A stretch of DNA of 63,570 bases, counting the filler, from Collodictyon triciliatum (lineage: Eukaryota), in NCBI GenBank assembly GCA_043381765.1. It is 8 parts of 8 records of this genome, joined end to end, with 100 filler letters (N's around TTAATTAATTAA, not from the genome) between each part and the next. Parts side by side here need not be neighbours in the genome. Positions count along the whole stretch, not along the records: positions 32,596 to 40,640 come from JBHJMP010003616.1; 7 more parts are not named here. One strand, written 5' to 3'. A model generated the notes under the pieces. That model worked only from the letters and a program-made list of their open reading frames with translations. It made no database searches and was not told the DNA's origin. Positions 38,935-39,890 of this stretch are shown here, one piece after another. Within the stretch, counting starts at the first letter, position 1, and every line of letters starts with the position of its first letter. The translations under genes and the position numbers were made by a program.

Positions 38935-39890
38935 TTCCTTTTTCGTATTTATTTATTTGTTTTAAAAACCAACAGACGTGGGCTGAATTACAAGACTTGA
39001 TGAGTAGTAATGGTTCGTACAAAAAGTATCGGTCAGCGTTACACCACGCAAAACCTCCATGCATCCCCTTCTTGTAAGATTGTGACTTATCCATAGCTTC
39101 CTATATTTTTTTGATACATAGTTTAGTGTCAATTTTATTTATTCATTTATTTTACTTATTTTGACAACGACACGAACTGCTGTCCAAAAATTTTTTTAGA
39201 GGTAATCATTTTAATTTTAATGCTTATTAAATCGAAACATCATGATAATATTAATGATATGGTAGTGCTTCCATTTACAAAGCTCACTATGATTTTTATC
39301 ACCTAAAACTCAAGGTGTTCATCTCACCGACTTGACATTTATTGATGACGGAAATAAAGATGTCGTTGATGGTTTAGTGAATTTTAAGAAAAGAGAACTG
39401 GTGTATAATGTTATAAGGTATATAGCTCATGTACCACACATATGTGTAGTTTATTTAAGAAAAAATACTTTTTTTTTTACATTCAATCAAAAATATCTTT
39501 GGAAGAATTTTTTTAAAAAAAGGAGAGAAAATAATATAAATCGAAAAATTTCATTTTATCTTCTGGTAATAATCCAGAGAGATTGAAAGCTTTCAACTGG
39601 AGCCATACCACCAGCTGAAACAAGAACCGAACTTATTCCATTTCCTGATGTAGGAATTTTGAATGCATTTATGATATCCGATTTTTTTTATTGCCTCAGT
39701 GATTATCATCGATATCGTTATTATATTTACAGCTGTCACTAGCTTCACCATTTTCATTTTTATTAGGCACCCACCATCAAATTCCGAGTCCATTTGGTAC
39801 GAACTCTCACTTATCAGAGAACCTCGAAAGTGGGACCGGTTAGAAATAATTGCATTCGAAAATATGATAAAAAAATTCCTGGATGAGTGA
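32868..39890 (+). CDS. Ras guanine nucleotide exchange factor (Pro-rich/(QS)n N-terminus, helical-bundle region, REM and CDC25 domains)
   Basis: REM: AATVNRLIERIT...FVKAFLATYRSFISPEKL...LRVCNFLQLW. CDC25: [71 protein letters not shown]. Confidence 0.93.
33234..33340 (+). repeat. Coding (CAATCC)n repeat encoding a poly-(QS) tract in RasGEF exon 1
   Basis: In frame in the open 32868-33746 exon. Confidence 0.85.

Follow-up and report, generated by a model that had tools for sequence, protein, structure and literature searches.

We analyzed a stretch of DNA of 63,570 nt, filler included (the window), and focused on a gene on its plus strand whose product is a RasGEF, or CDC25-homology domain, protein (PF00617). 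Our model of this gene spans 36271-39890, from an ATG at 36271 to a stop codon at 39888-39890, and comprises 14 exons and 452 codons. Splice sites were chosen so as to keep the reading frame, and the frame is open throughout the 452 codons once two bases, the AG at 39200-39201, are spliced in. The 13 introns range from 66 to 592 nt and are GT-AG without exception (13/13). GC content is 41% in the exons compared with 27% in the introns, and 26% in each of the two introns that flank the AG. Three exons matched the Pfam RasGEF profile at 38.3, 29.1 and 28.3 bits (cut-off 23.1), and a fourth aligned to profile positions 2-18 at 15.5 bits, below that cut-off. Exons 2-4 resemble, by eye, what we take to be a REM (RasGEF_N) domain; a single exon of this region, 36493-36606, was scanned alone and gave no Pfam match at E ≤ 0.1. 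The least secure parts of the model are intron 3 and the interval 37318-37909, neither of which has any bearing on the two-nucleotide exon discussed below.

Several features of the introns of this gene can be read directly. Intron 1 (36465-36530, 66 nt) has an in-frame TGA inside it and, about 25 nt ahead of the TAG at its 3' end, a yeast-like ACTAAC; no clear branch motif is seen in the remaining introns, and branch-point motifs across the RasGEF introns were too degenerate to be informative. A (TATC)n microsatellite lies at 38840-38931, within the intron 38701-38975, and a (CAAA)n microsatellite lies at 37344-37439, within the 37318-37909 interval. The Physarum genome has many short introns, some built largely of simple repeats, and the genome paper argues for intron gain in the Physarum lineage (PMC4758236). 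The organism examined here, an AT-rich protist, resembles Physarum in its many short introns, some of them made of microsatellites, a likeness that we treat as a lead and not as an assignment.

Elsewhere in the window, an ORF at 5394-7694 (+) runs uninterrupted for 766 codons and has, by eye, pentapeptide-like repeats, a long WD40 run and a Sel1-like end. Its best matches were cyanobacterial NB-ARC/WD40 proteins (33-48% identity), and one EukProt transcript matched it with 100% query coverage at 41% identity. A class III nucleotide cyclase domain at 22071-22916 (+), also recognized by eye, is interrupted by an I/T repeat encoded by (ATT/ATC)n. An ankyrin-repeat gene at 41071-41662 (+) gave Pfam Ank matches. 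From ORF translations read by eye, we recognized an NPC1/Patched-like membrane protein at 48835-53783 (-) and a gene that combines PH-like and protein kinase regions at 57132-60130 (+). Runs of 44 N occur in pairs, 12 nt apart, about every 8.14 kb (8053-8152, 16201-16300, 24349-24448, 32496-32595, 40641-40740, 48783-48882 and 56923-57022) and, in their regularity, look more like masking by the data provider than like gaps of the assembly; the only ordinary-looking scaffold gaps are at 43775-43784 (10 N) and 60575-60999 (425 N). There are no N runs near the AG at 39200-39201.

Table 1. Features of the RasGEF gene around the proposed two-nucleotide exon.
Feature	Position	Strand	Description
Upstream exon	38976-39073	+	98 nt; encodes ..AKPPCIPF and ends TT, the first two bases of a Leu codon; Pfam RasGEF positions 119-151, 29.1 bits
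Upstream intron	39074-39199	+	126 nt; GTAAGA...TTTTTTTAG; GC 26%; phase 2 within the Leu codon
Acceptor of upstream intron	39191-39199	+	seven-T run at 39191-39197; AG at 39198-39199
Proposed 2-nt exon, AG	39200-39201	+	A would complete the Leu codon (TT+A), G would open the Gly codon (G+GT)
Downstream intron	39202-39314	+	113 nt; GTAATC...CTCAAG; GC 26%; phase 1 within the Gly codon
Downstream exon	39315-39417	+	103 nt; starts GT GTT CAT; Pfam RasGEF positions 153-181, 28.3 bits

The candidate exon and the splicing solutions across the interval

The original prediction held that the AG is a microexon required for the RasGEF motif. The sequence elements on which it was built match the DNA exactly: the upstream exon ends in CCC TTC TT at 39073, GTAAGA comes next, and the downstream exon begins at 39315, after CTCAAG, with GT GTT CAT CTC ACC GAC. 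Within the interval, TTTTTTTAG/AG/GTAATC is present as claimed, with the AG at 39200-39201 and the donor GT at 39202-39203. The flanking introns of 126 and 113 nt are, as had been stated, of normal size for a gene whose other introns are 66-592 nt. The direct join of 39073 to 39315 does break the frame, giving a stop at codon 362 and not at codon 452, and translation of the spliced frame bore out that inclusion of AG rebuilds the conserved CDC25-homology motif. A transcript that skips AG would meet this premature stop nine codons on (codon 362 of 452), and so inclusion of AG would be needed for a working protein. The profile alignment leads to the same number of bases. Along the RasGEF profile, the match to the upstream exon stops at position 151, and the downstream exon, translated starting with the G at 39314, picks up at position 153, so that exactly one residue is missing, which corresponds to two bases.

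By enumeration, we considered ALTERNATIVES: single introns, two introns separated by an internal exon of 1-60 nt (each intron at least 40 nt), and nested introns. The enumeration found no in-frame single GT-AG intron across the interval, and the single-intron GT-AC, GC-AC and AT-AC options were rejected, as each deletes or alters part of the motif. Thirteen two-intron solutions keep the frame, and one of these 13 also keeps the motif, namely 39074-39199 + AG + 39202-39314. The number of nested (twin-intron) GT/GC-AG solutions that keep PPCIPF..GVHLTDL was zero. Among combinations of standard splice sites, only the AG exon preserves the CDC25-homology motif. The core of the original prediction was thereby supported, and the prediction as a whole in part.

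One in-frame single intron does combine a recognized dinucleotide pair with an AG end, a GC-AG intron at 39061-39314 that would delete I-P-F-L-G and produce a shorter protein. The donor of this intron, GCATCC, is poor, however, and its removal would cost five Pfam-matched core positions that are intact in 95/150 homologues (the best 150 of 294 matches; see below). We regard this solution as extremely improbable. Alternatively, the interval could be removed in one step as a non-canonical intron, 39074-39312, with GT..CA ends and with the mid-interval site idle. Since AGGT is present at both 39200-39203 and 39313-39316, the resulting mRNA would be identical and could not be told apart from the one proposed, and the conserved positions would be kept at its 5' end as well as at the A GGT that starts the exon. 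In contrast to such an intron, the other 11 introns of the gene all end in AG, being GT-AG and in frame throughout. Given how U2-type 3' splice sites are chosen, the usable AG two bases past the CA would be expected to capture splicing and shift the frame. One-step removal would also leave the mid-interval site as a coincidence, and we consider it very unlikely.

To gauge how often such a site arises by chance, we dinucleotide-shuffled the 241-nt interval 20,000 times and counted AG-[A/G]G-GT sites lying 40 nt or more from both ends. A site was found in 132 of the 20,000 shuffles, a site with at least 7/8 upstream pyrimidines in 10/20,000, and a site that in addition had a purine at donor +3 in 5/20,000; these figures are to be read in light of the fact that the site was first picked by a reader seeking a rescue of the frame. 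When the same three criteria were applied to both strands of the whole window, we found 26, 2 and 2 sites, with the 39200 site counted in. The presence of an AG-[A/G]G-GT site inside the interval exceeds chance expectation. The size of the interval, on the other hand, is no argument for two introns, because 241 nt falls within the 66-592 nt range of introns in this gene. A looser pattern (pyrimidine tract-AG-N(0-6)-GTR) occurs 43 times in the window, including 39200. Four of these 43 sites were inspected (1132, 34053, 55151 and 58272), and none was microexon-like: the sites at 1132 and 58272 are ordinary exon starts, and those at 34053 and 55151 have no flanking open frames.

The shuffles also bear on the possibility that the interval was once a single ancestral intron (39074 to ~39313) whose splice site was hit by a small indel, either through an assembly error or through a real mutation, which would leave the gene misassembled or broken and the mid-interval site coincidental. 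One G might have been lost, converting ..CAG/AGGT to ..CA AGGT, or two bases might have been lost at the donor. A one-base change would be enough, the 241-nt interval would be a normal intron for this RasGEF gene, and the acceptor present today is unusual. The AAG that ends intron 39202-39314 is the weakest acceptor of the gene and has a poor pyrimidine tract; none of the other 12 introns ends in AAG. This explanation, however, calls for two rare things at once: an indel that falls exactly on a splice site, and a rescue site that arises by chance (0.03-0.7% in the shuffles). No homopolymer is found around either splice site, and the remaining 12 junctions and the 452-codon frame are intact, which argues against decay to a pseudogene and against poor base accuracy. 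We view an indel of this kind as the leading alternative to the two-nucleotide exon but as rather unlikely, and the homologues described in the following section bear on it further.

Intron positions in RasGEF homologues

We collected homologues in a full HMMER scan that had the downstream exon as its query and gave 294 matches at E ≤ 0.001, and analyzed the best 150 of these 294. Many of the 150 are short ORFs called on genomic contigs, and the positions of introns in homologues were deduced from the protein strings of ORFs that seem to run across an intron or to begin inside one. Among the best 150, 95 carry x-[FYHW]-[LIVMF]-G without a break across the junction, and 33 have an R or S directly before the conserved G, preceded by sequence unrelated to RasGEF. 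Another 9 of the 150 start after the G, and 13 are of other kinds, including P0003 and P0032, which we rejected as spurious, non-RasGEF proteins. An acceptor AG plus the first base of the exon spells AGN, a codon for R or S, and so [R/S]-G is the mark expected of read-through of an intron that ends one base before the Gly codon.

The 33 ORFs with [R/S]-G could be split into 8 in which the upstream motif is also visible and 25 in which it is not. Among the 8, P0101 is doubtful, leaving seven credible ORFs with both flanks (P0016, P0039, P0053, P0075, P0086, P0088 and P0143). In all seven (7/7), the residue next after P-[YF]-[L/M/V] is Y, C or F. The codons for these residues start with T, as they should if a GT donor starts at the third base of the preceding codon. 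These two-flank ORFs appear to be in-frame read-throughs of an intron of about 60-75 nt, and both its phase and its GT and AG ends can be read from the protein string. A phase-2 intron in the Leu codon, at the same position as 39074, thus appears to be present in 32-33 of the best 150 homologue ORFs out of 294. The window shows the corresponding pattern in the same frame, with S-K-N-F-F-R-G at 39183-39203, after which the similarity stops and then resumes at 39315. This agreement supports the proposed exon.

This conserved position fits the 5' end of a single ancestral intron damaged by an indel equally well. It does not fit the version in which two bases were lost at the donor, because that intron would be in phase 1 in the Gly codon, unlike the phase-2 Leu position of the 32-33 homologues among the best 150 of 294.

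About 8 of the 13 ORFs of other kinds have L, I or A before the G, following unrelated or no upstream sequence (P0042, P0066, P0070, P0078, P0079, P0130, P0140 and P0144). These may reflect a phase-1 intron in the Gly codon in other lineages, at the position of the second intron in the window, and other explanations are possible. None of the best 150 ORFs out of 294 shows this second, phase-1 intron with certainty. A scan of metagenomes gave three relatives (L001-L003) that are 46-63% identical, all of them uninterrupted at the junction, and a two-nucleotide microexon was not seen in other organisms among the best 150 of 294 homologue matches or in L001-L003. A protein search with the junction exon gave 2 matches at 66-68% identity, and a search with the N-terminal exon gave 19 candidates, none of which was accepted; neither search turned up a transcript-derived protein from the same organism. 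The nearest named relatives of this RasGEF are amoebozoan or other protist proteins, from Pelomyxa schiedti, Diphylleia rotans and Vermistella antarctica.

Proposed origin, order of splicing and known ultra-short exons

Taken together, we consider it probable (roughly 0.7) that the AG at 39200-39201 is a used two-nucleotide internal exon of the RasGEF gene, placed between ordinary U2-type GT-AG introns at 39074-39199 and 39202-39314, which would be a very rare arrangement. We infer the inclusion of AG, its constitutiveness and the order of splicing from the DNA sequence. The acceptor at 39199 looks ancestral, and intron 39202-39314 looks like an extra intron set two bases into the old exon; it is probably younger than the upstream intron. 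According to this proposal, the upstream intron would be old, its phase-2 position within the Leu codon being common to many homologues, and the old exon would have started A GGT GTT. The second intron would have arisen later between AG and GT, a classic AG/GT site, stranding two bases. We found no copies of either intron elsewhere in the window beyond low-complexity matches, and no Rfam match in 38600-39800, and there is accordingly no sign of an introner or transposon origin. The predicted RNA fold of 39060-39330 was no more stable than shuffles (z = 0.20), and no structure bridging the sites was seen.

How would two such introns be removed? The acceptor AG at 39198-39199 would overlap the donor (approximately 39199-39208), so that both could not be occupied simultaneously, and an exon of two nucleotides should be beyond exon definition. 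Because the footprints overlap and exon definition would not apply, each short intron would be defined separately and the two would be removed in turn. Removal would resemble that at a recursive splice site, with the difference that the mRNA would keep two bases. The favored order would be upstream intron first, since this intron is transcribed earlier and has the stronger signals (GTAAGA and T7-AG). Its removal would leave a normal-sized exon ending in AG before GTAATC. In the downstream-first order, TAG/ would need to be preferred over GAG/ two bases later.

We also considered that the two-nucleotide exon could be real but not constitutive, with many transcripts skipping AG and being frameshifted as part of an unproductive-splicing switch. 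Skipping would end the frame at codon 362 of 452, the acceptor of the downstream intron is weak, and isoforms with and without the exon have been described for some 1-nt exons of plants (PMC8831610). Nothing counts directly against a switch; the strength of the T7-AG and GTAAGA signals points to efficient use, and we judge a switch unlikely.

The closest precedents for the proposed exon are single-nucleotide exons. Validated 1-nt exons have been reported in plant APC11 and VPS55 (PMC4674806, PMC8831610), and for the exon of APC11, Guo and Liu discuss intron definition combined with recursive-like, stepwise removal (PMC4674806). The plant exons and the RasGEF candidate have in common an internal exon too short for exon definition, two GT-AG introns, a role in keeping the frame, and absence from annotations. 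They differ in that the plant exons are 1 nt long and, in the accounts cited, have support from cDNA and reporter assays and are conserved across land plants, whereas the RasGEF candidate is 2 nt long and lies in a protist-like organism. In Fusarium, the CYP621A P450 genes contain a 1-nt exon that was confirmed with SRA reads and is common to 20 orthologues (PMC12940212). There, as at the RasGEF locus, a conserved motif (PKG in the P450s, P-F-L-G here) needs a tiny exon within an over-long "intron", with consensus sites on both sides. The Fusarium exon, as reported, is read-confirmed and shared among genes, and it measures 1 nt compared with 2 nt for the RasGEF candidate. Human MPC1 has a constitutive 4-bp microexon (PMC9929638) that is likewise frame-essential and of a length that is not a multiple of three, but it is 4 bp long and belongs to a vertebrate gene with long introns and strong exon-defining regions. 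A plant microexon database covers exons of 1-15 nt (PMC12409088). Among the papers listed by a phrase search of the literature, none gave an example of a natural 2-nt exon, and the supplements of PMC8831610 and MEPDB may contain 2-nt plant cases.

Two further systems resemble the locus in how removal would proceed. Drosophila has zero-nucleotide recursive splice sites, or ratchet points, at which a pyrimidine tract, AG and GT stand together in intervening sequence (10.1101/006163, PMC8605326). The RasGEF site shares the clustering of tract, AG and GT, an acceptor and a donor that would not be usable at once, and a predicted stepwise removal. At ratchet points, as described, the AG abuts the GT, nothing is retained and the introns are very long, whereas in the RasGEF gene two coding bases would be kept between introns of about 120 nt. 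We ruled out a zero-nucleotide recursive splice site at this locus, because two bases lie between the AG and the GT and the frame needs both. In fungal stwintrons, a compact region is removed by two consecutive standard splicing reactions (PMC5587772, PMC8469720). The inner intron of a stwintron interrupts a splice signal of the outer one, whereas the RasGEF introns lie side by side, and a stwintron was ruled out here because none of the nested GT/GC-AG solutions keeps the motif.

We think it fairly likely that the locus holds a working two-nucleotide exon, created by a new intron that arose just two bases past an ancient one shared widely, in a lineage still gaining introns. Ultra-short (1 nt) exons are already known; what would be new here is a 2-nt candidate whose origin can be read, as an extra intron beside an old one. 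If this is true, two introns with an overlapping acceptor and donor can be excised accurately in a protist outside the plants and fungi, and the ultra-short exons validated so far, which are few and 1 nt long (plants and Fusarium), would be joined by a 2-nt case on another branch of eukaryotes. Such loci would be natural test cases for a spliceosome faced with overlapping acceptor and donor binding sites. Published cases of 1-nt exons missed by gene predictors make it reasonable to expect that the 2-nt exon of the RasGEF gene would be missed as well, which points to a systematic blind spot of gene prediction: a predicted RasGEF protein would either end too early or lack a conserved stretch of its Ras-binding domain. 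In addition, the [R/S]-G read-through signature in metagenome ORFs offers a cheap means of mapping intron positions in organisms that have no annotated genome.
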